From: an uncultured Mycoplasmatota bacterium
GTDB lineage: Bacteria > Bacillota_I > Bacilli_A > RF39 > UBA660
Length of the DNA: 64,000 nucleotides
Assembly (NCBI GenBank): GCA_946414095.1
Contig: CAMKNB010000002.1
Location: 13,240 to 77,239, forward strand
Direction: 5' to 3'
The position numbers were made by a program, and so were the translations under genes. Shown one piece after another: positions 128 to 14,045 of the stretch. A model generated the notes under the pieces. That model saw nothing but the letters and a program-made list of their open reading frames with translations, searched no databases and was not told the DNA's origin. The first letter of the stretch is position 1; every line of letters starts with the position of its first letter.

Positions 128-337
128 ATGGATGATGATTATAAATTATATTTACTTGCTGAACTAAGATATAAAGATGAAAATAAAGATAAAAATGAAT
201 CTGAAATATTTCCAAGTGATTGGTATGGTTCAAAAAATTATAATTTTAAAACTATAATAATTTTAGAAGCAATAAAAAACAATAAGTTAATTAAAGAAAC
301 TGAATTATATAAAGAGTTTCAAGAACATGTGAATTAA
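128..337 (+). CDS. Hypothetical protein (69 aa)
   Basis: GAGGT RBS upstream; hairpin terminator downstream. Confidence 0.6.
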   Translation: MDDDYKLYLLAELRYKDENKDKNESEIFPSDWYGSKNYNFKTIIILEAIKNNKLIKETELYKEFQEHVN

Positions 338-361
338 CATCTTTAAAAAAGATGTTTTTTT
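336..361 (+). terminator. Intrinsic terminator
   Basis: AACATCTTT-aa-AAAGATGTT hairpin followed by a T-run. Confidence 0.65.
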
Positions 362-369
362 ATGTAAAA

Positions 370-412
370 AAAAGAAGTGTTTTGATGTTTCTATGGCTAA
401 TTATATTAATAG
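370..412 (+). promoter_or_regulatory. Promoter-like motif AAAAGAAGTGTTTT-N15-AATTATATT (second copy at 12173-12210)
   Basis: Same two blocks with identical spacing upstream of two unrelated loci. Confidence 0.55.
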
Positions 413-422
413 GAGGATAAAA

Positions 423-2495
423 ATGCAAAATAAAAAACACTTTGTTAAACAATCAGGTTACAAAGACTGTGCATCTGCTTCTTTATTAACAATAATGAAT
501 TACTATGGATTTAATACATCGCTAGATGAAGTATCATATGTATTAAAAACAAATAATTCAGGAACAAATGCTTTAAATATAATAAATGGATGCAAATATT
601 TTGGATTTGATGGATATGGAATACATTATAGTTATGATGAAATAATTAATAATAAAGTAAATATGCCAATAATATGTCATACAATAAAAAATAATATGTA
701 TCATTTTATAGTTGTTTTTTCTTCTAATAAAAAATATTTAATAGTAAATGATCCCTCTTCAAATATAAATAGAATTAGTCATGAATATTTTAAAAAGATT
801 TATTTAAATACTTCACTTGTTATATATCCAGTTAAAATACAAAAGAACACTATAAAGAGTAAATCTTTATGTAATTTTATATTTGATTATATAAAACTAG
901 AAAAGAATACAATAATAAAAAATATAATTATTTCATTTATTTACATATTATTATCAATATTGACAAATTATTATTTATTAATAATATTAGATGTTATTCT
1001 TCCCCAATATAACTATAAATTATTCTTAGTATTAACAATATGCTTTTTAAATATTTATATTATTAAAAACTTATTATATTTTATTAGAGAAAAGAGTACT
1101 TTTAAAATTGAAAAAAATCTGTATAAAAAAATAAACATAAATATTATAAATAGCATTTTTAATCTTCCTTATAATTTCTTTAAATCTAAATCTACTTCAG
1201 AAATACAAACTAGAATTGATGATATTAAAATCATAAAAACTTACTTATCAAAAATAATTGTCACAATTAGTATGGATACTACTTTTATAATTGTTAGTTC
1301 AATAATATTATTAAACATTAATATTAAATTATTTATAATTAGTTTAATAGAAATATTATTATATTTTCTTGTGTACTTGCTATTTAAAAATAACTTCATA
1401 ATTAAAAGTGAGGAGGTGTTAGAGAGTGAAAGTGAATATAACAAAGAGTTATATGAAAGTATAAATGGTTATGAAGTGAATAGAAATTTAAATAATATTA
1501 ATGAACAAAATAAAAAAGTAGAAATTAGTTTTATAAAGTATGTTAATAAAATTAATAATTATGAAAATCTAACTAATAAAGAATTGTTACTAAAAAATAT
1601 AATAACAGATGTATTCTATGTTACATCTATATTTATTGGAATAAGATTTGTTATTGATAATTATATTACACTTGGAAACTTTATTTTATTTAATAGTATA
1701 TTATATTATTTTAGTGAACCAATTAAAAATATGATTGAACTTAAAAATAATTTAATATATTTAAAAACTACATATAGAAGAATGAATGATATATTACTTT
1801 TTAAGAAAAATAAAAGTATAGTAAAAAAACAAATATTAAAAAAAGATATTATTATTAATAATTTAAGTTATAGTATAAATGGAATAGATTATTTGTTTGA
1901 AAATATTAATCTTGAAATAAAATATGGAGATAAAATATTAATATATGGTAAAAGTGGTAGTGGTAAAAGCACATTAATAAAAATAATATTAAAATATTTA
2001 AGTGATTATAAAGGCAATATATATTTTGACAATATTAATCTAAAGGATATGAGTGATTATATTATTAGTGATAATTTTACATATGTATCACAAAACAGTT
2101 TTATTAATAATGATACTTTAATAAATAATATTATTATTAATAAGAATATTAGTGAAGATGAATATGAAAGAGTAATTAATATATGTAACTTAAATACATT
2201 TAGAGATTCTAAATTTAATAGAAACAATTTTGTTATAGAAGAAGATGGTTTTAATATATCAGGAGGAGAAAGACAAAAAATAATACTTGCTAGAAGTTTA
2301 CTAAAAAATAGTAACTATATAGTACTTGATGAAGCATTAAGTGAAGTTGGATTTGATGAAGAGAAAGAAATAATAAATAAGATATTAGAATATTATAATG
2401 ATAAAACAATTATTTATATTTCACATAAAAAAGAAATAATTGATTTATTTACAAGCAAATATAAATTAGAAAGGAGTTGTGGTTATGTTAAGTGA
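423..2495 (+). CDS. Peptidase C39-containing ABC transporter (PCAT; bacteriocin/pheromone processing exporter)
   Basis: QSGYKDC catalytic Cys, HFIVV His and NDP Asp; TM domain; Walker A GKSGSGKS; signature ISGGE; AGGAGG RBS before ATG 423. Confidence 0.93.
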   Translation: MQNKKHFVKQSGYKDCASASLLTIMNYYGFNTSLDEVSYVLKTNNSGTNALNIINGCKYFGFDGYGIHYSYDEIINNKVNMPIICHTIKNNMYHFIVVFSSNKKYLIVNDPSSNINRISHEYFKKIYLNTSLVIYPVKIQKNTIKSKSLCNFIFDYIKLEKNTIIKNIIISFIYILLSILTNYYLLIILDVILPQYNYKLFLVLTICFLNIYIIKNLLYFIREKSTFKIEKNLYKKININIINSIFNLPYNFFKSKSTSEIQTRIDDIKIIKTYLSKIIVTISMDTTFIIVSSIILLNINIKLFIISLIEILLYFLVYLLFKNNFIIKSEEVLESESEYNKELYESINGYEVNRNLNNINEQNKKVEISFIKYVNKINNYENLTNKELLLKNIITDVFYVTSIFIGIRFVIDNYITLGNFILFNSILYYFSEPIKNMIELKNNLIYLKTTYRRMNDILLFKKNKSIVKKQILKKDIIINNLSYSINGIDYLFENINLEIKYGDKILIYGKSGSGKSTLIKIILKYLSDYKGNIYFDNINLKDMSDYIISDNFTYVSQNSFINNDTLINNIIINKNISEDEYERVINICNLNTFRDSKFNRNNFVIEEDGFNISGGERQKIILARSLLKNSNYIVLDEALSEVGFDEEKEIINKILEYYNDKTIIYISHKKEIIDLFTSKYKLERSCGYVK

Positions 2496-2616
2496 AGAAG
2501 AACTAAGAAGTGTACATGGAGGATTTGCAAAAGGAGTAATAGTTAGTATTGCAAGTTATGTAATATCTTTCATAATTGGAGTTTTCGATGGCTATTATAG
2601 ACCACTTGGTTGTTAA
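2485..2616 (+). CDS. Double-glycine leader peptide A (43 aa), MLSEEELRSVHGG|FAKGVIVSIASYVISFIIGVFDGYYRPLGC
   Basis: AAGGAG RBS; LSxxELxxVxGG leader; overlaps the PCAT stop; absent from the ORF track. Confidence 0.88.
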   Translation: MLSEEELRSVHGGFAKGVIVSIASYVISFIIGVFDGYYRPLGC

Positions 2617-2618
2617 AA

Positions 2619-2780
2619 ATGAGTGAAACTGAATTATATGATATAAAAGGTGGAAGTTCATTAAATTCTACAATGTTAAATGCTATTGTAAGAGCTTTTA
2701 ATCTTTCTTTAGAACTTGGAAGAATGTTAGGAAGTTATATAAGAAGAAAAAGAAATAGAATGTTATGCCCAATAAAATAG
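2619..2780 (+). CDS. Double-glycine leader peptide B (53 aa), MSETELYDIKGG|SSLNSTMLNAIVRAFNLSLELGRMLGSYIRRKRNRMLCPIK
   Basis: ELxxIxGG leader; starts 2 nt after the peptide A stop (alternative TTG start at 2610); terminator follows. Confidence 0.85.
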   Translation: MSETELYDIKGGSSLNSTMLNAIVRAFNLSLELGRMLGSYIRRKRNRMLCPIK

Positions 2781-2802
2781 GTTAGAAATAACCTATTTTT
2801 TT
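2774..2802 (+). terminator. Intrinsic terminator of the PCAT-peptide operon
   Basis: AAAATAGGTTA-gaaa-TAACCTATTTT followed by a T-run. Confidence 0.75.
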
Positions 2803-2825
2803 ATGTATATTATAAATGTTATAAG

Positions 2826-2853
2826 TTGACATATATTTTAATATTAGTATAAT
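2826..2853 (+). promoter_or_regulatory. Sigma-A promoter of the ABC transporter pair
   Basis: TTGACA-N16-TATAAT. Confidence 0.7.
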
Positions 2854-2875: not shown

Positions 2876-4630
2876 ATGCTTAGCATATTAAAGAATTTTA
2901 ATAAAAAAGAAATTATAGCTATATTTATTTCATTTATATTTATAGTATTACAAGTATTTTTAGAATTAAAAATACCAGATTATATGAGCAATATAACAAC
3001 ACTTGTTCAAACTGGCAGTGAGACATCTAAAATACTAACACAAGGTATATATATGCTTATATGTGCTTTTTTAAGTATGATTTGCGCTATTATAGTTGGA
3101 TATATAATTGCTAATAGTTGTTCATCATTTTCTAAAAATATAAGAGAAAAACTATTTAAAAAAGTTAGTTTATTTAGCATGGAAGAAATTAAGAAATTTA
3201 ATACAAGTAGTTTAATTACAAGAACAACTAATGATGTTACTAATGTTGAAACATTTCTTATCATGGGACTTCAAACTATAATTAAAGCACCAGTTACTGC
3301 GGTATGGGCAATAATGAAAATAATGGGTAAAAATTTTACATGGACTATTATTACTGGAGGAGCTGTCGTTATATTACTAATAGGTGTAGCTTTAATTATG
3401 ACAACAGTATTACCAAGATTTAAATTAATACAAAAAATGATAGATGGTATAAATGAACTTACTCGTGAAAACTTAAAAGGTATTAGAGTTATAAGAGCTT
3501 TTAATGCAGAAAAATATCAAGAAAAGAAGTTTGAACGTCAAAATGAAAAATTAACAAATACATTATTATTTACACAAAAAGTTATTGCTATTATGTCACC
3601 AATGATGTATTTAATTATGAATGGTGTTGCACTTTCTATTTATTTCTTTGGAGCATCTATTATTAATAATTCTCTTATATCACTTAGAATAGATTTATTT
3701 AGTAGTATGATTATATTTACTTCATATGCAACTCAAGTTATAATGTCATTTTTAATGTTTGCATTTATTTTCGCTATGTATCCAAGAGCTGCTATATCAA
3801 TAGATCGTATTAATGAAGTATTAAATACAAAAACAAAAATTAAGAGTGGAAAACTAAGAAAATCTAAAACTAATCATGAAATAGAATTTATTAATGTAAG
3901 TTTTAAATATCCTGATTCAGAAGAATATACTCTTAAAGATATTTCATTTAAAGCAGAAAGGGGTCAGATGGTAGCTATTATAGGTTCTACTGGAAGTGGT
4001 AAAAGTACATTAATAAACTTAGTCCCTAGATTTTATGATGCTACAGAAGGTGTAATATTAATTGATGGAGTAGATGTAAAAGAATATGACTTAGAATACT
4101 TATATGATAAGATTGGTTATGTTCCTCAAAAAGCAGTAATGTTTAATGGAAGCGTTAACTATAATGTTTCATATGGTAAAAAAGATAATTATAATATTAC
4201 AGAAGATACTATTAAAGAAGCAGTTAAAGTAGCTCAAGCAGAAGATTTTGTTCTTAAAATGGAAAATGGTTATGAATCAAATATAGCAGAAGGTGGAACA
4301 AATATATCAGGTGGTCAAAAACAAAGAATAGCAATTGCAAGAGCAATCGCAAGAGACCCAGAAATCTATATATTTGATGATTCATTTAGTGCTCTTGATT
4401 ATAAAACTGATTATACTCTTAGAAGTGAATTAAAGAAATATACAAAAGATGCTATAAGTTTAGTAGTTGCATCTAGAATAGGTACAATTAAAAACGCAGA
4501 CAAAATAATAGTTTTAGATAATGGTAAATGTGTAGGAATGGGCACACATAAAGAACTGCTTAAGAATTGTAAAGTATATAAAGAAATAGCATATTCACAA
4601 CTATCAAAGGAGGAGCTTTCAAATGAATAA
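2876..4630 (+). CDS. Heterodimeric multidrug-type ABC exporter, subunit A (degenerate-site subunit)
   Basis: 6 TM; Walker A GSTGSGKS; ISGGQ; Walker B FDD (Asp in place of the catalytic Glu). Confidence 0.9.
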   Translation: MLSILKNFNKKEIIAIFISFIFIVLQVFLELKIPDYMSNITTLVQTGSETSKILTQGIYMLICAFLSMICAIIVGYIIANSCSSFSKNIREKLFKKVSLFSMEEIKKFNTSSLITRTTNDVTNVETFLIMGLQTIIKAPVTAVWAIMKIMGKNFTWTIITGGAVVILLIGVALIMTTVLPRFKLIQKMIDGINELTRENLKGIRVIRAFNAEKYQEKKFERQNEKLTNTLLFTQKVIAIMSPMMYLIMNGVALSIYFFGASIINNSLISLRIDLFSSMIIFTSYATQVIMSFLMFAFIFAMYPRAAISIDRINEVLNTKTKIKSGKLRKSKTNHEIEFINVSFKYPDSEEYTLKDISFKAERGQMVAIIGSTGSGKSTLINLVPRFYDATEGVILIDGVDVKEYDLEYLYDKIGYVPQKAVMFNGSVNYNVSYGKKDNYNITEDTIKEAVKVAQAEDFVLKMENGYESNIAEGGTNISGGQKQRIAIARAIARDPEIYIFDDSFSALDYKTDYTLRSELKKYTKDAISLVVASRIGTIKNADKIIVLDNGKCVGMGTHKELLKNCKVYKEIAYSQLSKEELSNE

Positions 4631-6794
4631 TGAGAAAATAAATAAAAGACCTGCAAGACCACATGGTCCAGCTGGAAGAGGGGCTCCAGGAGAAAAACCT
4701 AAGAATTTAAAAGAAGCAGTAAAAAAATTAGTATTTTACTTAAAACCATATAGATTCTTTATATTTTTAGCAATAGTACTTGCGGCTTTAAGTAGTGTAT
4801 TATCAATAATTGGACCTGATAAATTAAAAAGTCTGACTGATGAAATATCTAAAGGTCTTGTAATTAATACAAAAAATATTGAAATTATCAAAAATGATAT
4901 AGAAAAGGATATAAAGAATAATATTATATTAGATGAAGAAATCTTAAATAGTTTAACAAAAGAAGAAAAAGAAGAATATAATAGTTTCTTATCAAAAGTA
5001 AATAATCTAAATGATAAAGAAAAACTAGTTTCCATTATCAATTTACCATCAACTATAAAAACATTTATATTTACGGATAGTGAAATAAATGGAAATATGC
5101 TTACAAGTATGGATAAAATTGAATTACTGGATTTTATGATGATAACTGATAATGAAAAAATGTATGAACAAATAGAACAACTTGATGATAATTTAAAAGA
5201 TTTAATTAAACCAACTATGGATTTAAATAAAATAAAAACTATAGCTTTAACTTTAGTTGTAATGTATGTTCTTAGTGCACTATTTAGTTATACACAAAAC
5301 TATTTAATGGTAAAAGTAGCTAATGATTTTTCTAAAACTCAAAGAAGAGACATTACTAGAAAAATAAATAATTTACCTCTTAAATATTTTGATACACATA
5401 GTTATGGAGATATATTATCAAGAGTAACAAATGATGTAGAATCAATTAATATGTCGCTCCATAATAGTTTAGGTTCTTTAGTATCAGCAGTTGCATTATT
5501 AATAGGTTCACTCATTATGATGTTCAAAACTAATGTAATACTAGCTATTATTAGTATTGTTTCATCTTTAATAGGATTTGTATTTATTTCAATTATAACT
5601 ATGAAATCTCAAAAATACTTTATAGCAAGACAAGATGAACTTGGTAAACTAAATGGTCATATAGAAGAAATATATTCAAATCATAATGTAGTAAAAGCAT
5701 ATAATGGAGTAGAAGATGCTAATAAAACATTCGATGAATATAATACAGGACTTTATAATGCAAATAGAATGAGTCAATTCTTATCTGGTATTATGGGACC
5801 GATGATGGGATTTATTGGAAATATTGGATATGTAGCAGTATGTGTAGTAGGTTCAGTTTTAGTATTAAAAGGAAGTATTACATTTGGAGTAATCGTTGCA
5901 TTTATAATGTATGTTAGATTGTTTAGTAGTCCACTTTCTCAAATAGCTTCTTCTATTCAAAATTTACAAACAGCAACAGCCGCAGGAGAAAGGATATTTG
6001 AATTTATAGAAGAGAAAGAATTGAGTGATGAATCAAAGATTGCTAAGTATCTAGATCCATCTAAAGTAAAAGGTAACATAGAATTTAATCATGTTAAATT
6101 TGGCTATGACAAAGATAAAATTATTATTAAAGATTTTAATTGTAAAGTTAAACCTGGACAAAAGATAGCAATAGTAGGTCCAACTGGAGCTGGTAAAACA
6201 ACTATAGTAAACTTACTTATGAAATTCTATGAAATAAATAGTGGTGACATTAAAATAGATGGAGTTTCAACAAAAGAATTAACAAGAGAAAATATTCATA
6301 GTTTATTCATTATGGTTCTTCAAGATACTTGGCTATTTAATGGAACAATTAGAGATAATATCAAATTTAATAATGGAAGTATAAGTGATGAAGAAATATG
6401 GAATGCTCTTAGTGTAGTAGGGGTAGATCATTTTGTTAAAACTCTTCCAAAAACACTTAATTATAAAATAGAGGATAATGAATCTATTTCAAGCGGACAA
6501 AAACAATTATTAACAATAGCTCGTGGTATGATTGAAGACTCACCATTTCTAATTCTTGATGAAGCAACTAGTAGTGTAGATACAAGAACAGAAGAATTAG
6601 TACAAAAAGCTATGGATAAATTAACAGAAGGAAGAACATCTTTCATAATTGCACATAGACTTTCAACAATTAAAAATGCTGATTTAATACTTGTTATGAA
6701 AGAAGGTAATGTAATAGAAACAGGTACACATGAAGAATTACTTAAAAAGAATGGTTTCTATGCAGAGTTATATAATTCACAATTTCAAAATTAA
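4623..6794 (+). CDS. Heterodimeric ABC exporter, subunit B, with a large insertion in the first extracellular loop
   Basis: GPTGAGKT, ISSGQ, ILDEATS, AHRL; overlaps subunit A. Confidence 0.9.
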   Translation: MNNEKINKRPARPHGPAGRGAPGEKPKNLKEAVKKLVFYLKPYRFFIFLAIVLAALSSVLSIIGPDKLKSLTDEISKGLVINTKNIEIIKNDIEKDIKNNIILDEEILNSLTKEEKEEYNSFLSKVNNLNDKEKLVSIINLPSTIKTFIFTDSEINGNMLTSMDKIELLDFMMITDNEKMYEQIEQLDDNLKDLIKPTMDLNKIKTIALTLVVMYVLSALFSYTQNYLMVKVANDFSKTQRRDITRKINNLPLKYFDTHSYGDILSRVTNDVESINMSLHNSLGSLVSAVALLIGSLIMMFKTNVILAIISIVSSLIGFVFISIITMKSQKYFIARQDELGKLNGHIEEIYSNHNVVKAYNGVEDANKTFDEYNTGLYNANRMSQFLSGIMGPMMGFIGNIGYVAVCVVGSVLVLKGSITFGVIVAFIMYVRLFSSPLSQIASSIQNLQTATAAGERIFEFIEEKELSDESKIAKYLDPSKVKGNIEFNHVKFGYDKDKIIIKDFNCKVKPGQKIAIVGPTGAGKTTIVNLLMKFYEINSGDIKIDGVSTKELTRENIHSLFIMVLQDTWLFNGTIRDNIKFNNGSISDEEIWNALSVVGVDHFVKTLPKTLNYKIEDNESISSGQKQLLTIARGMIEDSPFLILDEATSSVDTRTEELVQKAMDKLTEGRTSFIIAHRLSTIKNADLILVMKEGNVIETGTHEELLKKNGFYAELYNSQFQN

Positions 6795-6823: not shown

Positions 6824-7417
6824 TTACTTTAATACTCTAATTAGTCTTTGCTCTAAATAAGGCCTTGCAAATTGTTCTTCTAAAAGCAATATACTTTCTT
6901 TATATCTATTATATGCAAATTCATAATCACCATTTTCAATAGCTAGAACACAAGCGTCTACTACATTATCATAAATATAATTATATATTAATTCACTATT
7001 TTCATTTTTGTCTATTGCTTCAACAATATAAGGAGCAGTTTCATAATAATGTTCAATATCTTCTTTACTTACAAAATTATCTCTAAACCATCTTAGAACT
7101 GTAAGTTCATAACATTTGTCATCAAATTTATCTTGAAAAAATTTCATACATGCAGACGTTAAATAACAACCACCATTATTTTGTACTTCACCAATAGAAG
7201 GATTTTTAGAATCATTACTTTCTTGTCTGCTAAAGTCAGGTTCTTTTCCAGAATTGTAATCATCTTTATTATTCCAATGTTCATGACTGTGACCTCCATC
7301 ACCATTGTCATGATATCTATTTACACTTCCATTTTTTTCATAACTTGTATATATTAAACGATCATCTTCACCATAGCTAGCATATCCCCATTCTCTATTT
7401 TTTCCACCATTACTCAT
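6824..7417 (-). CDS. CFI-box-CTERM-like domain protein
   Basis: GGCYLTSAC...ELTVLRWFRD...YYETAP pattern; GGAAAGGA RBS before ATG 7417. Confidence 0.7.
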   Translation of the reverse strand: MSNGGKNREWGYASYGEDDRLIYTSYEKNGSVNRYHDNGDGGHSHEHWNNKDDYNSGKEPDFSRQESNDSKNPSIGEVQNNGGCYLTSACMKFFQDKFDDKCYELTVLRWFRDNFVSKEDIEHYYETAPYIVEAIDKNENSELIYNYIYDNVVDACVLAIENGDYEFAYNRYKESILLLEEQFARPYLEQRLIRVLK

Positions 7418-7730
7418 TTTTATTATTTCCTTTCCAAATATAGAAGAAACTACCATCATCATTAAATTCAAACTTATCTCTTCCAACAATATCAATTAGT
7501 TCTTCAAACTTTTTAATAATTTCATTAGTTTTTTCAATTTTAAATTGATATTCTAAACTATCTTTATTTTGTCTTAAATCATCAATTTCTTTGTATAAAT
7601 CAAGTAGTAATTTTGGCTCTTTACCAGTATCATCCATATAGTTTTCAAACTCTAAACTATAATCAAGTATTAATGACATATTATCATCAAATTCATTATT
7701 ATTAATAATAATCACTCCTTTCAAGAACAT
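7410..7730 (-). CDS. Hypothetical acidic protein (start uncertain, possibly ATT)
   Basis: Open frame overlapping the next gene's start; AAAGGAG RBS near 7715-7721. Confidence 0.55.
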   Translation of the reverse strand: MFLKGVIIINNNEFDDNMSLILDYSLEFENYMDDTGKEPKLLLDLYKEIDDLRQNKDSLEYQFKIEKTNEIIKKFEELIDIVGRDKFEFNDDGSFFYIWKGNNKNE

Positions 7731-7834
7731 TATATTAATAAAAAAAATAATTATCAATAAAATACCTTTGATATAAAAAATTGATATAACGAAAAAAATA
7801 CATTTTATGTTAAATTATTATTGAGGTGTATAAT

Positions 7835-10237: not shown

Positions 10238-12139
10238 ATGTCTGATATATCTTATTATATAATGAGTTTTATATATTTGCTTGTTGTCATTGTAGCATAT
10301 TTTTCAAAGAAAAAAATAAAGAGTCCCGAGAATTCAATATTTTCTTCAACGCTTATTATTACCATTGTAGGGTTAATATTTAGTTTTATAAGTTATTTTT
10401 TAGTTAAATCTGGGATAAAATCTAATGATGCGTTATATATTTGGTCAAATAGATTAATATTATTATATTATAATTTGTGGGGAGTAATATTTACTTCATA
10501 TATTGCTATACTTTCAACAAATAGTAATAAAGAACAAAAATATATTAGGAATAGAAAGATAACTTTAGTAGCCATGGTTATATCAGCAATTTTAGCATTG
10601 GTATTGCCATTTGAAATTAAGGAAATAGATGGATTGTTGTTACCAACGGGACTTTCGGTAAATTGTACTTATATAATATCTGGTATTGCAGTTTTTATAA
10701 TGATTATTTTATTGATTGGAGATTATCAAAATTTTAAAAGCAAAAAATATATACCATTATATTCATTTTTAGTAATGGGTATGTTTTGTCTTATGGCACA
10801 GTATGTTAATCCAAAGTTAATGTTATTTACACCATTGCAAGTGTTTATCTGTGTAATAATATACTTTACAATTGAAAACCCTGATGCTAAGCTTGTTGAG
10901 TATGAGAAGACTGAGAAAGAGAGAGCTGAGGCTGCTAGCCTTGCTAAGAGTGAATTCTTAAGTAGTATGTCTCATGAACTTAGAACTCCTTTGAATGCTA
11001 TTGTTGGTTTAAGTGAAGATATTGAATCATTTAATGATAAAGTACCAAAGGAAGTTAGGGAAGATACTGTTGATATTGTTAATGCATCAAATACTTTACT
11101 TGAAATAATTGGTAGTATCTTAGATATAAGTAAGATTGAAAGTGGAAAGCTTGATATAGTTGAAAGTGATTATGCACCTAAAGATGAATTTGAAAGTATT
11201 GCTAAAATACTTAGAACTAAAGCAAGTGAAAAGAATTTAGAATTTAATGTATCTATTAGTGATAGAATACCTGATGTATTATTTGGTGATAGACTTAGAA
11301 TTAAACAAATTATTAACAATTTGCTTTCTAATGCTATTAAATATACTGATCATGGTAGAGTAAATTTCTTTGTTAATTGGTTAGATGCATCTGGAGCATT
11401 ATCTATTACAGTAGCAGATACTGGTAGAGGTATTAAAGAGGAAGATATAGATAAATTATTTAGTAAGTATGATAGACTTGGTGTTGAAAAAACAAGTAAT
11501 GTTCAAGGAACTGGTTTAGGTCTTGCTATTACTAAGACACTTATTGATTTAATGGGTGGAACAGTAGAAGTAAAAAGTGAATATTTAATTGGAACAACAT
11601 TTAGTGTAACAATACCTCAAAAACTTGGAGATGCTGAGAGACTTGAATCTATTAAGATGGCTCAAATGTATGTTCCTAAAGACCTAGACTTTAAAGGTAA
11701 AAAGTTACTTGTTGTTGATGATAACTTACTTAATATTAAAGTGTTTAAGAAAGCTATTAAGGATTTAAATTTTGAAGTAGATGAATGTTATAATGGACAA
11801 GAAGCGCTTGATAAAATAGAACTAAAAAATGATTATGATATTATATTTATGGATATTAAAATGCCTGTTATGGATGGAGAAGAAGCAATTGGACATTTAA
11901 TTAATATGCCAAACTTTAAAACTCCTGTAGTAGCACTAACAGCAGATGCAATGACAGGATCAAATAACAAGTATATTAATATGGGATTTAGTGATTATAT
12001 GTCTAAACCATTCTCAAGAAAAGTTATAGCTGTAAAATTAGACGCTATATTAAATAAAGGAGAAGTTGCTAATAAAAATTTAAATACTGAAGAAGAGAAG
12101 AAAGAAGAAACACAATCAGAAGAATTTAAAGAATCATAA
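10238..12139 (+). CDS. Orphan hybrid sensor histidine kinase/response regulator with multi-TM N-terminus
   Basis: MSHELRTPL H-box, NAIKYT, DTGRG, GTGLGL; receiver VVDD...FMD.KMP...SKP. Confidence 0.93.
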   Translation: MSDISYYIMSFIYLLVVIVAYFSKKKIKSPENSIFSSTLIITIVGLIFSFISYFLVKSGIKSNDALYIWSNRLILLYYNLWGVIFTSYIAILSTNSNKEQKYIRNRKITLVAMVISAILALVLPFEIKEIDGLLLPTGLSVNCTYIISGIAVFIMIILLIGDYQNFKSKKYIPLYSFLVMGMFCLMAQYVNPKLMLFTPLQVFICVIIYFTIENPDAKLVEYEKTEKERAEAASLAKSEFLSSMSHELRTPLNAIVGLSEDIESFNDKVPKEVREDTVDIVNASNTLLEIIGSILDISKIESGKLDIVESDYAPKDEFESIAKILRTKASEKNLEFNVSISDRIPDVLFGDRLRIKQIINNLLSNAIKYTDHGRVNFFVNWLDASGALSITVADTGRGIKEEDIDKLFSKYDRLGVEKTSNVQGTGLGLAITKTLIDLMGGTVEVKSEYLIGTTFSVTIPQKLGDAERLESIKMAQMYVPKDLDFKGKKLLVVDDNLLNIKVFKKAIKDLNFEVDECYNGQEALDKIELKNDYDIIFMDIKMPVMDGEEAIGHLINMPNFKTPVVALTADAMTGSNNKYINMGFSDYMSKPFSRKVIAVKLDAILNKGEVANKNLNTEEEKKEETQSEEFKES

Positions 12140-12248: not shown

Positions 12249-13142
12249 ATGAATTACTACGAAGAAATTAAAAATGAACTTATAAATAATGAAGTATATA
12301 AGAAAGTAAAAGATTATTCGAAAAATAAAAATGATCTAATGACTTATTATAATGTGGGTAAATTATTATTTAAAGCTGGTAAGCATTATGGAAATGGAAT
12401 AATAAAACAATATTCAATTAAATTAGTTGAAGAATTTAGTAATGCTAAATACGGATATAGAAATCTATTTAATATGAGAAAATTTTATATATTATTCCAA
12501 AATGAAAAAATGAACGCACTGCGTACACAATTGTCTTGGACACATTATAGAGAGTTATTAGTATTAAAAGACATGAATGAAATAAACTATTATATTGATA
12601 TTTCAATTAAGGAGAATCTTTCTTATAGAGAACTTCATAATAAAATAAAAAGTAAAGAGTATCAAAGATTAGATGAAGACGTAAAAAAGAAACTTATATT
12701 AAAAGAAGAAACTAAAATAGAAGATTTTATAAAGAACCCTATTGTTATTAGAAATACTAATAATATTGAAAATATAAGTGAAAAAGTGTTGAAAAAACTT
12801 ATACTTGAAGATATAGAGCACTTTATGAATGAACTAGGGTTTGGATATTGTTTTGTAGGAAGTGAGTATAGAATAAAGATAGGAAATAATTACAATTATA
12901 TAGATTTATTATTGTTTAATATTAAGTTTAATTGCTATGTTGTAATTGAACTCAAAGTAACAGAATTAAAGAAGGAACATATTGGTCAAATAGAAGTATA
13001 TATGAATTATGCAGATAAAAATTTAAAAGAGAGTGGTCAAGATAAAACAATAGGCATTATTATTTGTAAGAAAGAAAACAAGTTTATTATGGAATATGCT
13101 AGTGATGAAAGAGTTTATAGTAGAAGTTATGAGTTATTGTAG
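12249..13142 (+). CDS. YhcG/DUF1016 family PD-(D/E)xK nuclease, copy 1
   Basis: LSWTHY, ELGFGYCFVGSE, YIDLLLF...VVIELK, GQIEVY and TIGIIIC motifs. Confidence 0.9.
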   Translation: MNYYEEIKNELINNEVYKKVKDYSKNKNDLMTYYNVGKLLFKAGKHYGNGIIKQYSIKLVEEFSNAKYGYRNLFNMRKFYILFQNEKMNALRTQLSWTHYRELLVLKDMNEINYYIDISIKENLSYRELHNKIKSKEYQRLDEDVKKKLILKEETKIEDFIKNPIVIRNTNNIENISEKVLKKLILEDIEHFMNELGFGYCFVGSEYRIKIGNNYNYIDLLLFNIKFNCYVVIELKVTELKKEHIGQIEVYMNYADKNLKESGQDKTIGIIICKKENKFIMEYASDERVYSRSYELL

Positions 13143-13150
13143 GAGAAAAT

Positions 13151-14045
13151 ATGGATTACTATGAAGAAATTAAAAATGAACTTATAAACAATGAAGTATA
13201 TAAGAAAGTAAAGGATTATTCTAAAAATAAGAATGATCTAATGACTTATTATAATGTAGGAAAACTGTTAATTGAAGCACAGGGTGGTGAAGAAAGAGCA
13301 AAATATGGAAATAAATTAATTAAAGCATATTCTAAAAAACTAGAAATAGAGTTAGGTAAAAAATATAATGAAAGAACACTAAGAAGAATGAGGCAATTAT
13401 ATATATTGTTTAAAAATATAAAATGGTCGACAGTGTCGACCAAATTAAGCTGGTCACATTACCAAGAACTATTAGTATTAGTAGATAAATATGAGATAGA
13501 TTATTATATTCAAGAAACCATTAAACATAATTTAACTATAAGACAATTAAGAGAAAAAATAAAAAGTAAAGAATATCAAAGATTAGATAAGAACACTAAA
13601 CAAAAACTAATTCTAGAAGAAAGAACCGATATTGATGATTTTATAAAGAATCCTATTGTTATTAGAAATACTAATAATATTGAAAATATAAGTGAAAAAG
13701 TATTAAAGAAACTTATACTTGAAGATATAGAGCACTTTATGAATGAACTTGGAAGTGGATACTCTTTTATTGGTAGTGAGTATAGAATAAAGATAGGAGA
13801 TAATTACAATTATATAGATTTATTGTTATTTAATATTAAGTTTAATTGCTATGTTGTAATTGAACTCAAAGTAACAGAATTAAAGAAGGAACATATTGGT
13901 CAAATTGAAGTGTATATGAACTATTTAGACAAGAATTTAAGAAATGCGAGCCAAAATAAAAATAATATGTAAAAAAGATAATAAGTTTGTAATGGAATAT
14001 GCTAGTGATGAAAGAGTATATAGTAGAAGTTATGAATTAGTATAA
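13151..14045 (+). pseudogene. YhcG/DUF1016 nuclease, copy 2, frameshifted near the 3' end (ORF stops at 13972; ancestral stop 14045)
   Basis: 11-nt deletion relative to copy 1 at about 13961; IICKKDNKFVMEYASDERVYSRSYELV continues in another frame. Confidence 0.8.

Follow-up and report, generated by a model that had tools for sequence, protein, structure and literature searches.

A conserved operon encoding two double-glycine-leader peptides and their C39 exporter in an uncultured gut and rumen bacterial family

The exporter–A–B locus and its boundaries

The analysed stretch of DNA, 64,000 nucleotides from an uncultured Mycoplasmatota bacterium of the RF39/UBA660 lineage (hereafter the window), contains a three-gene operon consisting of a PCAT exporter gene and two short genes for the precursors of peptides A and B, closed by a single terminator. 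The exporter gene (423..2495, + strand) encodes a protein of 690 aa with a C39 peptidase, a 6-TM domain, and an ATPase. Its open reading frame covers positions 393-2495, of which ATG 423 is the most plausible start, with an AGGAGG ribosome-binding site recognized by eye at 411-416. The Pfam domains Peptidase_C39 (82.9 bits), ABC_membrane (82.6 bits), and ABC_tran (86.9 bits) were all found above the Pfam cut-offs. The score against TIGR01193 is 375 bits, below the cut-off of 523.85, and the exporter is therefore a divergent member of the PCAT group. The closest solved relatives are Streptococcus pneumoniae ComA (E 1.7e-83) and then PCAT1 (E 1.5e-76). The protein aligns end to end with both of them and retains the Cys and His motifs, DCASASL corresponding to DCGVASL of ComA, and HFIVV to HYYVV. 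All the features by which a PCAT is recognized, i.e., the C39, ABC membrane, and ATPase domains together with the catalytic Cys and His residues, are present, and the description of the exporter as intact, given in an earlier note on this DNA, was confirmed.

The precursor of peptide A (2485..2616, + strand; 43 aa) starts within the final 11 nt of the exporter gene. The Shine-Dalgarno sequence GAAAGGAG, read from the sequence at 2469..2476 (+ strand), lies 8 nt upstream of this start, and an identical GAAAGGAG precedes A in the related loci that were inspected. The precursor consists of the leader MLSEEELRSVHGG (13 aa, ending with GG; 2485-2523) and the core FAKGVIVSIASYVISFIIGVFDGYYRPLGC (30 aa; 2524-2613). 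The core is hydrophobic (GRAVY 1.21, net charge +1), contains GVFDG inside and RPLGC at its end, and includes the residues G32xxxG36, D35, R39-P40, and C43. The precursor of peptide B (2619..2780, + strand; 53 aa) is composed of the leader MSETELYDIKGG (12 aa, also ending with GG; 2619-2654) and the core SSLNSTMLNAIVRAFNLSLELGRMLGSYIRRKRNRMLCPIK (41 aa; 2655-2777), which is amphipathic and cationic (GRAVY -0.04, net charge +7, helical hydrophobic moment 0.59) and contains GRMLG, RRKRNR, and a single Cys, with the residues G34xxxG38, R42-R43, and C50. Two GG-leader ORFs with these cores, motifs, and very short leaders had been proposed previously, and all of these elements are in place. Because B starts 2 nt past the A stop codon and has no Shine-Dalgarno sequence of its own, translational coupling of A and B is suggested; it is this coupled gene arrangement alone that points to equal amounts of both peptides.

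The 5' boundary of the operon is formed by a hairpin followed by a T-run (330..362, + strand; dG -9.2 kcal/mol, z -3.11, with 1 of 200 shuffled sequences folding equally well), which closes an upstream 69-aa ORF (128-337). At the other end, an intrinsic-terminator-like hairpin with a T-run (2774..2802, + strand) overlaps the B stop codon. The hairpin itself (2774-2799) has a dG of -10.5 kcal/mol and a z of -3.35, and 2 of 200 shuffles fold equally well, in agreement with the earlier assignment of a single terminator; a consensus terminator scan omitted it because the scan demands at least three G-C pairs. Further downstream, a perfect TTGACA-16-TATAAT promoter (2826..2853, + strand; 12 of 12 matches) precedes a separate unit, a pair of ABC exporter genes recognized by domain matches (2876-4630 and 4623-6794). 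This pair was considered as a part of the operon or as its immunity determinant and was rejected, since it is located behind the terminator under its own promoter and since in other genera rpsU or different genes come next instead. No modifying enzyme is encoded in the operon, and a RiPP reading was ruled out on this ground.

Conservation of the peptides and distribution in the host family

Related loci were collected with the exporter protein as a query, and 20 genera were examined in detail. The order exporter-A-B was present in all 20; of the 48 family genomes having both A and B, 47 have A immediately before B in the same orientation. When 46 A and 43 B sequences were aligned, no columns were invariant except G13, G32, G36, and C43 of peptide A and G12, G34, G38, and C50 of peptide B, which in both cases correspond to the cleavage-site Gly, the GxxxG motif, and the Cys. 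The check suggested in the earlier note, concerning the conservation of GG, GxxxG, and Cys and the linkage to the PCAT, was thus positive. Exactly one Cys occurs in 45/46 A and 41/43 B sequences. Counted from the second Gly of GxxxG, the Cys is at +7 in all 41 A rows and at +12 in all but one of 41 B rows. Over the 12 pairs compared, dN/dS ranges from 0.04 to 0.30 in A, apart from a single value of 0.61, and from 0.04 to 0.42 in B. This purifying selection, together with the conservation of both ORFs behind orthologous exporters, shows that A and B are real genes and rules out chance ORFs. Leader lengths in the relatives, which depend on the chosen start codons, are 12-15 aa for A and 12-19 aa, mostly 12-16, for B; the cores have 29-34 and 36-44 aa, respectively. 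The analysis of mutual information between A and B (41 pairs) revealed that A without R39 is accompanied by an aromatic residue at B31 in 5/5 genomes, versus 7/36 of the others, and this covariation, coming from related genomes and small numbers, is a hint only.

The relatives of the operon contain additional genes. In 10/20 related genera, a gene for a membrane-anchored, adaptor-like accessory protein is located between the exporter and A. The best structural matches of its barrel (VIA-align) are membrane-fusion proteins, among them BesA (Z 8.4); adaptors take 10 of the top 14 rows, at middling Z values of 6.4-8.4, and the search of the accessory model against the PDB with Foldseek gave no match at E <= 0.001. 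A leaderless membrane-anchored paralogue of B, named C, follows B in 8/20 genera (hhalign probability 94%, E 1.2e-7) and is a candidate immunity factor. No accessory gene was found in the window or the host genome (best E-value 0.029); there is also no ORF between B and the terminator, and no C-like ORF in the genome (best E 0.018). The earlier claim that the operon has no immunity or HlyD-like gene consequently holds for the window but not for the system as a whole, where such an absence is a peculiarity of the genus.

What a single window could not reveal, and what is new here, is the near-universal distribution of these genes across the family. B was detected in 287/299 sampled genomes of the host family (~96%), representing 126/127 genera, usually in one copy, and in 43/49 other genomes of the host genus, and a search of 384 genomes from other families of the host phylum did not detect it. 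The operon is therefore a near-universal, mostly single-copy core locus of the whole host family. Clustering of the A/B relatives gave 408 clusters (90% identity) and 433 representatives (50% identity), and each of the 408 clusters related to B is unnamed or annotated as "hypothetical". B is positioned directly upstream of rpsU in 11/20 genera (9 confirmed with Pfam, 2 by eye). One of these 11 rpsU-adjacent loci comes from outside the host family. In the host genome, rpsU-yqeY is on a different contig from the operon. The near-universal presence of B in the family, usually in one copy and often upstream of rpsU, makes this distribution atypical for a bacteriocin. The sequence was found in DNA of bovine and sheep gut metagenomes, with no RNA among the 23 runs; in three metatranscriptome contig sets, matches were limited to fragments of 35-43 nt, carrying 3-6 mismatches, in the AT-rich exporter gene, with none on A/B. 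A search of the literature on bacteriocins, double-glycine peptides, and PCAT of RF39/UBA660 gave nothing on the A/B family. RF39 and Mollicutes are absent from the searched passages of PMC12648112, whose supplementary tables may list such peptides.

Relation to known two-peptide and pheromone systems

Peptide A matches the NCBIfam model TIGR03949 (class IIb, lactobin A/cerein 7B) with 24.1 bits, just above the cut-off of 21.5, and 35/46 A sequences have hits to this model at E <= 0.01. NCBI-style annotation would consequently use that name; however, only the leader and the Gly-containing helix are matched by this 45-position model, and the DGYxRPLxC tail as well as peptide B are outside the family. 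The score of A against the lactococcin G-beta model NF038034 is 23.3 bits, below the cut-off of 37, and 30/46 A sequences reach E <= 0.01, every score being below that model's cut-off. The score against Pfam PF10439 (Bacteriocin_IIc) is 15.4 bits, under the gathering score of 27.1. For B, no match was obtained in Pfam, including PF10439, or in NCBIfam, including TIGR03949, NF038034, and NF038035, and only 2/43 of its relatives match NF038035 (lactococcin G alpha; cut-off 37 bits) at E <= 0.01. In a protein atlas, B falls among "hypothetical protein" clusters; a Bacteriocin_IIc/ComC cluster, appearing at rank 29 with a score of 0.85, is treated as a lead only.

Class IIb bacteriocins, as described in passages of a review (PMC2850506), have adjacent genes, GG leaders of 15-30 residues, a dedicated ABC transporter, and GxxxG in all members; an inter-peptide disulfide is not mentioned there. 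In the A/B locus, the genes are adjacent within one operon, GxxxG is present in both peptides, and ELxx(I/V)xGG leaders with a predicted cleavage site are accompanied by the PCAT directly upstream. A leader of 15-30 aa, an immunity gene in the operon, and an accessory protein are not found in the window. The assignment to class IIb is thin, since B has no family, A fails PF10439 and NF038034, and the leaders are short. The likeness to lactococcin G and enterocin 1071, following the same review (PMC2850506), comprises adjacent, coexpressed GG-leader genes and a dedicated C39 ABC exporter in the operon. It extends to the pairing of a hydrophobic peptide with one having a strongly cationic C-terminus, GxxxG being present in both; many relatives also have an accessory protein together with a further small membrane protein. 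Compared with lactococcin G and enterocin 1071, the A/B system has shorter leaders, one invariant Cys close to the C-terminus of either peptide, and, in the window, no immunity gene; it is also a core, mostly single-copy locus of the whole family rather than a strain-variable one. Known class IIb immunity proteins are multi-pass membrane proteins, whereas the candidate immunity gene of the relatives is a B paralogue.

In Streptococcus pneumoniae, a PCAT occurs together with a GG peptide conserved throughout the species, and CibAB is a two-peptide fratricide bacteriocin. ComAB/ComC and CibAB are precedents for core GG-peptide systems, and the A/B operon resembles the former in its exporter, for which ComA is the closest solved relative, and in a conserved GG peptide. 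In contrast to ComAB/ComC, no ComD/E-type sensor adjoins the operon, and A and B exceed CSP considerably in length and hydrophobicity.

Proposed function, alternative readings, and significance

The reading that we consider probable on balance is that the operon encodes a putative class-IIb-type, lactococcin-G-like two-peptide membrane-active agent, which is now a core trait. It is proposed that the exporter gene, A, and B are cotranscribed and that coupled translation of A and B would give about equal amounts of the two. The C39 domain would recognize the short ELxx(I/V)xGG leaders and cut after GG, and the exporter would then secrete both cores as helices, that of A hydrophobic (30 aa) and that of B cationic and amphipathic (41 aa). 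In the membrane, A and B might pack in parallel via their invariant GxxxG motifs, and the invariant C-terminal Cys may lock one to the other. Such a pair would permeabilize or disturb the target membrane, with competing or sibling bacteria as the most likely target. In contrast to ordinary bacteriocins, the operon would by now belong to the core genes of an uncultured gut and rumen family with small genomes and would be inherited vertically. The class IIb two-component peptide of the earlier note is upheld as far as the conserved GG, GxxxG, and Cys, the exporter linkage, and the TIGR03949 score are concerned.

The covalent form of the pair, in which mature A and B would be joined by a C43(A)-C50(B) disulfide, is possible but rather doubtful. 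It would agree with the single, invariant Cys of each chain and its fixed spacing from GxxxG. By a rough geometry, B has ~12 helical residues (~18 A) between these points, and A has 3 helical and, after P40, 4 extended residues (~17 A); as the two distances match, the thiols would be level in a parallel GxxxG-registered pair. However, the invariant thiols might have a different function, e.g., in metal, target, or lipid binding, and the bovine and sheep gut is a reducing habitat. No DsbB, VKOR, or DsbA-like gene was found in the host genome (86% complete), which, together with the habitat of an anaerobe, weakens the disulfide step. Among the 10 of 221 papers listed in a literature search on two-peptide bacteriocins with an inter-chain disulfide, none dealt with bacteriocins. 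For a complex of mature A (14-43) and mature B (13-53), predicted from an alignment of each, the score was 0.04 versus a mark of 0.32, with the tool giving no call either way.

Two further readings can be considered. According to one of them, exported A and B enter the membrane or envelope of the producer itself and act, for example, in sporulation, envelope homeostasis, or nutrient or DNA acquisition. This self-directed role, which we regard as unlikely, would account for a core, mostly single-copy operon that frequently has no immunity gene; it is consistent with the near-universal presence in the host family and the failure to find B in the 384 genomes of other families, with purifying selection, with the lack of a candidate immunity gene in 12/20 genera, and with the retention of the operon even after relocation, as in the host, where rpsU-yqeY is elsewhere. 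The neighboring genes are also of the housekeeping and sporulation type (S21, YqeY, YabP/YqfC, YqfD, GerM, SpoIIIAH, YlbD, and RsmD), although proximity to sporulation genes may just reflect gene-dense small genomes. The architecture and motifs are, however, those of secreted two-peptide bacteriocins, PCAT export releases the peptide outside the cell, and we know of no housekeeping role of this sort for GG-leader peptides. The other reading takes A and B for quorum-sensing or developmental pheromones, exported like ComC/BlpC. The competence-pheromone exporter ComA as the closest solved relative, the core conservation of the operon, compatible with a regulatory role, and a hybrid histidine kinase 7.5 kb downstream (10238-12139) could speak for it, but five unrelated genes lie between that kinase and the operon, and the cognate kinase and response regulator that adjoin ComC/BlpC-type peptides are missing from the operon. 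Pfam named no kinase or response regulator among 35 ORFs (two upstream of the exporter in 19/20 loci); of 38 such ORFs, 3 on the opposite strand were left out, for locus L049 the sequence does not extend upstream, and Pfam gave no family for 5 of the 35. The small ORFs downstream in the 20 loci, inspected mostly by eye, show no apparent kinase or regulator. The cores of A and B are long, hydrophobic or amphipathic, and carry GxxxG invariantly, unlike the known GG pheromones, which are shorter and do not have the motif. We consider the pheromone reading very unlikely.

It can also be speculated, at a level we consider unlikely, that the pair is a membrane-active heterodimer, perhaps with a Cys-Cys link, which is needed constitutively and defines the lineage; it would not be a weapon of competition and would serve the extraction of nutrients or DNA from neighbors or a sporulation-linked lysis of siblings. 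If true, this would explain the core and mostly single-copy retention in more than 120 genera, often without an immunity gene; the host group would be one of reduced-genome, probably partner-dependent gut bacteria, and the B paralogue would be a decoy or an anchor in some genera.

Returning to the favored two-peptide membrane-active agent, A and B are short enough for synthesis and, if active, would provide novel membrane-active agents of narrow spectrum; to judge from record titles, the group they come from has no cultured model. They define a large uncharacterized family of two-peptide GG-leader precursors, in which B has no Pfam or NCBIfam model and which brings testable invariants, namely the GG site, GxxxG, and one Cys per chain. 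It is rare for a bacteriocin-type locus to be fixed in the core gene set of a whole uncultured gut and rumen family, as is the case here, and the locus makes testable the question of whether such peptides are always weapons or may be part of the basic physiology of a lineage.

Organization of the operon and its two small genes

A single compact transcription unit is contained in 330-2853 (+). Just 5' of it lies a 69-aa hydrophilic ORF of unknown family (128-337, +), which has its own terminator, a hairpin followed by a T-run (330-362, +; dG -9.2 kcal/mol, z -3.11). The exporter, a C39 peptidase ABC transporter (PCAT) of 690 aa (423-2495, +), has its likely start at ATG 423, with AGGAGG upstream, and its Peptidase_C39, ABC_membrane and ABC_tran domains all score above the Pfam cut-offs. 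The gene of peptide A (2485-2616, +) overlaps the 3' end of the exporter gene by 11 nt and starts 8 nt 3' of GAAAGGAG. The gene of peptide B (2619-2780, +) begins 2 nt past the A stop codon and lacks its own Shine-Dalgarno sequence. A hairpin with a T-run (2774-2799, +; dG -10.5 kcal/mol, z -3.35) overlaps the B stop codon. Beyond it, a perfect sigma-70 promoter, TTGACA-16-TATAAT (2826-2853, +), precedes a distinct unit, a pair of ordinary, MsbA-like ABC exporter genes (2876-4630 and 4623-6794, +) whose stop and start overlap; their synteny with the operon is limited to the window's genus.

The best solved relatives of the exporter are ComA (E 1.7e-83), the pneumococcal pheromone exporter, and PCAT1 (E 1.5e-76). 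The exporter motifs DCASASL and HFIVV align to DCGVASL and HYYVV of ComA, and their Cys and His are the catalytic residues. Since the score on TIGR01193, the NCBIfam PCAT model, is below the cut-off (375 bits vs 523.85), the exporter is classed, by sequence, as a divergent PCAT member.

The small ORFs A and B are genes. Orthologues or fragments of the exporter were found in 20/24 same-genus genomes; one further genome, assembled as a single contig and 45% complete, gave a match full of stop codons, and in 3/24 only generic ABC matches were found. Within the genus both A and B lie 3' of the exporter wherever downstream DNA existed, and the order exporter-A-B is kept in 20/20 further genera (14-kb loci; 19 genera of the window's family and one of another family). 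In pairwise Nei-Gojobori analysis of 12 genome pairs (21 comparisons; B missing in three pairs), dN/dS of A lay at 0.04-0.30 except in one pair (0.61), and that of B at 0.04-0.42; comparison of the window with its nearest relative gave 0.043 (A) and 0.237 (B).

The database ORFs P0206 (99 aa) and P0139 (101 aa) have A and B fused in one frame with the B leader kept, and the W at the junction of P0139 is possibly a TGA that gene calling translated as Trp. In the protein P0123 (1340 aa), 12 separate stretches match B-profile positions 7-27 (leader end and core start). At G025:C25:21605-24412, in a genome of a sister family in the same order, B is intact (E 1.9e-19) and the exporter match upstream of it contains 10 stop codons, read through, in its first two thirds; this may be a decaying gene or an assembly problem.

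Conserved signature of the peptides and their relation to known families

All motifs named in the earlier note are present in A and B when the sequence is read. In alignments of relatives the invariant columns are G13 (the cleavage site), G32, G36 and C43 among 46 distinct A sequences, and G12, G34, G38 and C50 among 43 distinct B sequences. Conservation of at least 90% was found in the same sets for L7, G12, F29 and P40 of A and for E5, L6, R42 and R43 of B. Selection thus keeps precisely the GG site together with a single GxxxG and a single Cys in each chain. Exactly one Cys is found in 45/46 A cores and 41/43 B cores. The spacing from the second Gly to the Cys is 7 residues in 41/41 rows of A and 12 residues in 40/41 rows of B. 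The Cys is followed by 0-4 residues in A and by 0-6 in B, a variation that speaks against a signal for C-terminal processing of the CaaX type. The cores of A are hydrophobic, with a mean GRAVY of 1.03, and 39/43 B cores have a net charge of +3 to +7.

Peptide A passes the cut-off of TIGR03949, "class IIb bacteriocin, lactobin A/cerein 7B family" (24.1 bits, cut-off 21.5), and scores below those of the lactococcin G-beta/enterocin 1071B model (23.3 bits, cut-off 37) and Pfam Bacteriocin_IIc (15.4 bits, cut-off 27.1); at E <= 0.01, 35/46 and 30/46 A sequences match the first two models, respectively. On this sequence match, NCBI-style annotation would already name A a class IIb bacteriocin. For B, no family was found in Pfam or NCBIfam, and only 4/43 of its relatives touch any bacteriocin model. 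Its relatives comprise 408 clusters (90% identity, E <= 0.01) among 8000 candidates scored and 433 representatives at 50% identity and E <= 0.001, 137 of them at E <= 1e-10; those with names are all "hypothetical protein" from "Bacilli bacterium" MAGs. In the literature as available to the search, no description of the A-B family was found, and the supplementary tables of a gut bacteriocin survey (PMC12648112) may list members.

Distribution, genomic position and additional genes of relatives

The following counts describe samples of related genomes, not independent events. In a class-wide draw of 400 genomes, B was found in all 49 members of the window's family and in G030, the only genome drawn from a second family, with weak leader-level matches (E 2e-4 to 1e-3) in 3/24 genomes of a third family and none elsewhere in the draw. 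Of these 49 family genomes, 48 also have A; in 47/48 it immediately precedes B in the same orientation, and the exception is a contig break. An order-wide draw of 300 genomes gave B in 287/299 family genomes (126/127 genera) and in the only sister-family genome drawn; the family genomes without B, 12 in all, are MAGs of 91-95% completeness. Within the genus, B occurs in 43/49 other genomes and in 20/22 high-quality ones (counting G000). A phylum-wide draw gave 16/16 family genomes and, at E <= 1e-4, 0/384 non-family genomes. Matches to B are usually one per genome, and A and B are each single-copy in the window's genome.

In 11/20 genera the ribosomal protein S21 gene (rpsU) lies directly 3' of the operon (nine Pfam-confirmed, two by eye). 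These 11 include G030, from outside the family, which suggests that the position is old and was inherited vertically. The window's genome (25.7% G+C, 1.56 Mb) has rpsU-yqeY on another contig and the operon stands behind rpe; the operon is therefore retained through relocation.

The titles of related records name MAGs of uncultured Bacilli, Mollicutes or "Clostridium sp." that come from the human gut and the goat caecum, and the DNA of the stretch also occurs in bovine and sheep gut metagenomes (12 studies). Sporulation-type genes are found near the operon in the family: YabP/YqfC, YqfD, GerM (Germane), SpoIIIAH and a YlbD coat protein (L049:6368-6619 and L049:6106-6381, -, plus upstream ORFs in loci L037, L042, L043, L045, L047 and L050). 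The genomes concerned are only 0.7-1.6 Mb, and the lineage may form spores. In the window, a hybrid histidine kinase of 633 aa (HisKA, HATPase_c, receiver domain; 10238-12139, +) lies 7.5 kb 3' of the operon, with no link to it seen. Beyond it stand two paralogous genes in tandem (12249-13142 and 13151-13972, +), both of the YhcG/DUF1016 PDDEXK nuclease family; locus L035 has a further copy, upstream of its operon.

Two additional genes occur in relatives. An accessory gene of 130-162 aa, membrane-anchored and without a Pfam match, stands between exporter and A in 10/20 genera (in locus L037, for example, at 7357-7809, -). The AlphaFold model of its product (mean pLDDT 83.7) consists of an N-terminal transmembrane helix and a beta-barrel. 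The top structural match is BesA (Z 8.4, rmsd 3.1 A, 85 residues aligned), followed by ZneB, AcrA, MexA, MacA, EmrA, CusB and Spr0693; membrane-fusion or periplasmic adaptors make up 10 of the top 14 rows, at middling Z. The model points to a probable minimal accessory protein, possibly HlyD/ComB-like. The other gene, paralogue C, is a third small ORF (44-58 aa) overlapping the B stop in 8/20 genera (L035:6826-6990, L037:6863-7039, L042:6902-7063, L043:6904-7068, L051:6929-7063, L052:6910-7059 and L053:6872-7042, all -; L044:7197-7364, +), and it is the second weak B match in genome G138. C is without a GG leader and has a Lys-rich start, then an N-terminal transmembrane helix. Its C-terminal half is homologous to that of B (hhalign probability 94%, E 1.2e-7, 29 columns), with GxxxG and Arg invariant and Cys in 6/8 sequences. 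By its sequence, C is a candidate immunity factor mimicking B (a decoy), or a membrane anchor. Neither gene was detectable in the window's genome (best E 0.029 for the accessory gene, 0.018 for C), and C is absent from the window's genus.

Proposed action of the pair and alternative roles

The review PMC2850506 gives as class IIb criteria adjacent genes in one operon including an immunity gene, GG leaders of 15-30 residues, an ABC transporter dedicated to the peptides and frequently accompanied by an accessory protein, and GxxxG in every member. Because of its architecture, its motifs and the fuller loci of relatives, the pair is somewhat probably a two-peptide agent of class IIb type. Coupled translation would yield equal amounts of both precursors, the C39 domain would cleave after GG and the transporter would export the cores. 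The hydrophobic helix of A and the amphipathic helix of B, with its cationic tail, might then pack in parallel via GxxxG in the membrane, as PMC2850506 proposes for lactococcin G and plantaricins, and the outcome would be membrane permeabilisation. The invariant Cys residues could link A and B by the disulfide raised in the earlier note. With the motifs in register, by our own estimate, 12 helical residues of B would reach about the same height as 3 helical and 4 extended residues of A after Pro40. However, DsbB, VKOR and DsbA-like genes were not found in the window's 86%-complete genome by a search that detected control genomes, and the habitat is reducing; both speak against the bond.

A self-directed physiological role of the pair is rather unlikely, although it draws on features atypical of bacteriocin loci: the operon is a core trait across the lineage and mostly single-copy, its neighbours are housekeeping or sporulation genes, and an immunity candidate is often wholly absent. 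That A and B act as a pheromone, as the earlier note allowed, is less likely and appears quite improbable: the cores are long and membrane-like, and neither the window nor the 20 related loci showed a sensor next to the operon (Pfam on 35/38 listed upstream ORFs, from 19 loci; remaining neighbours by eye). The novel elements are the B family, the signature of Cys and GxxxG, the leaderless paralogue that resembles B, and the status of the operon as a core trait throughout the family.
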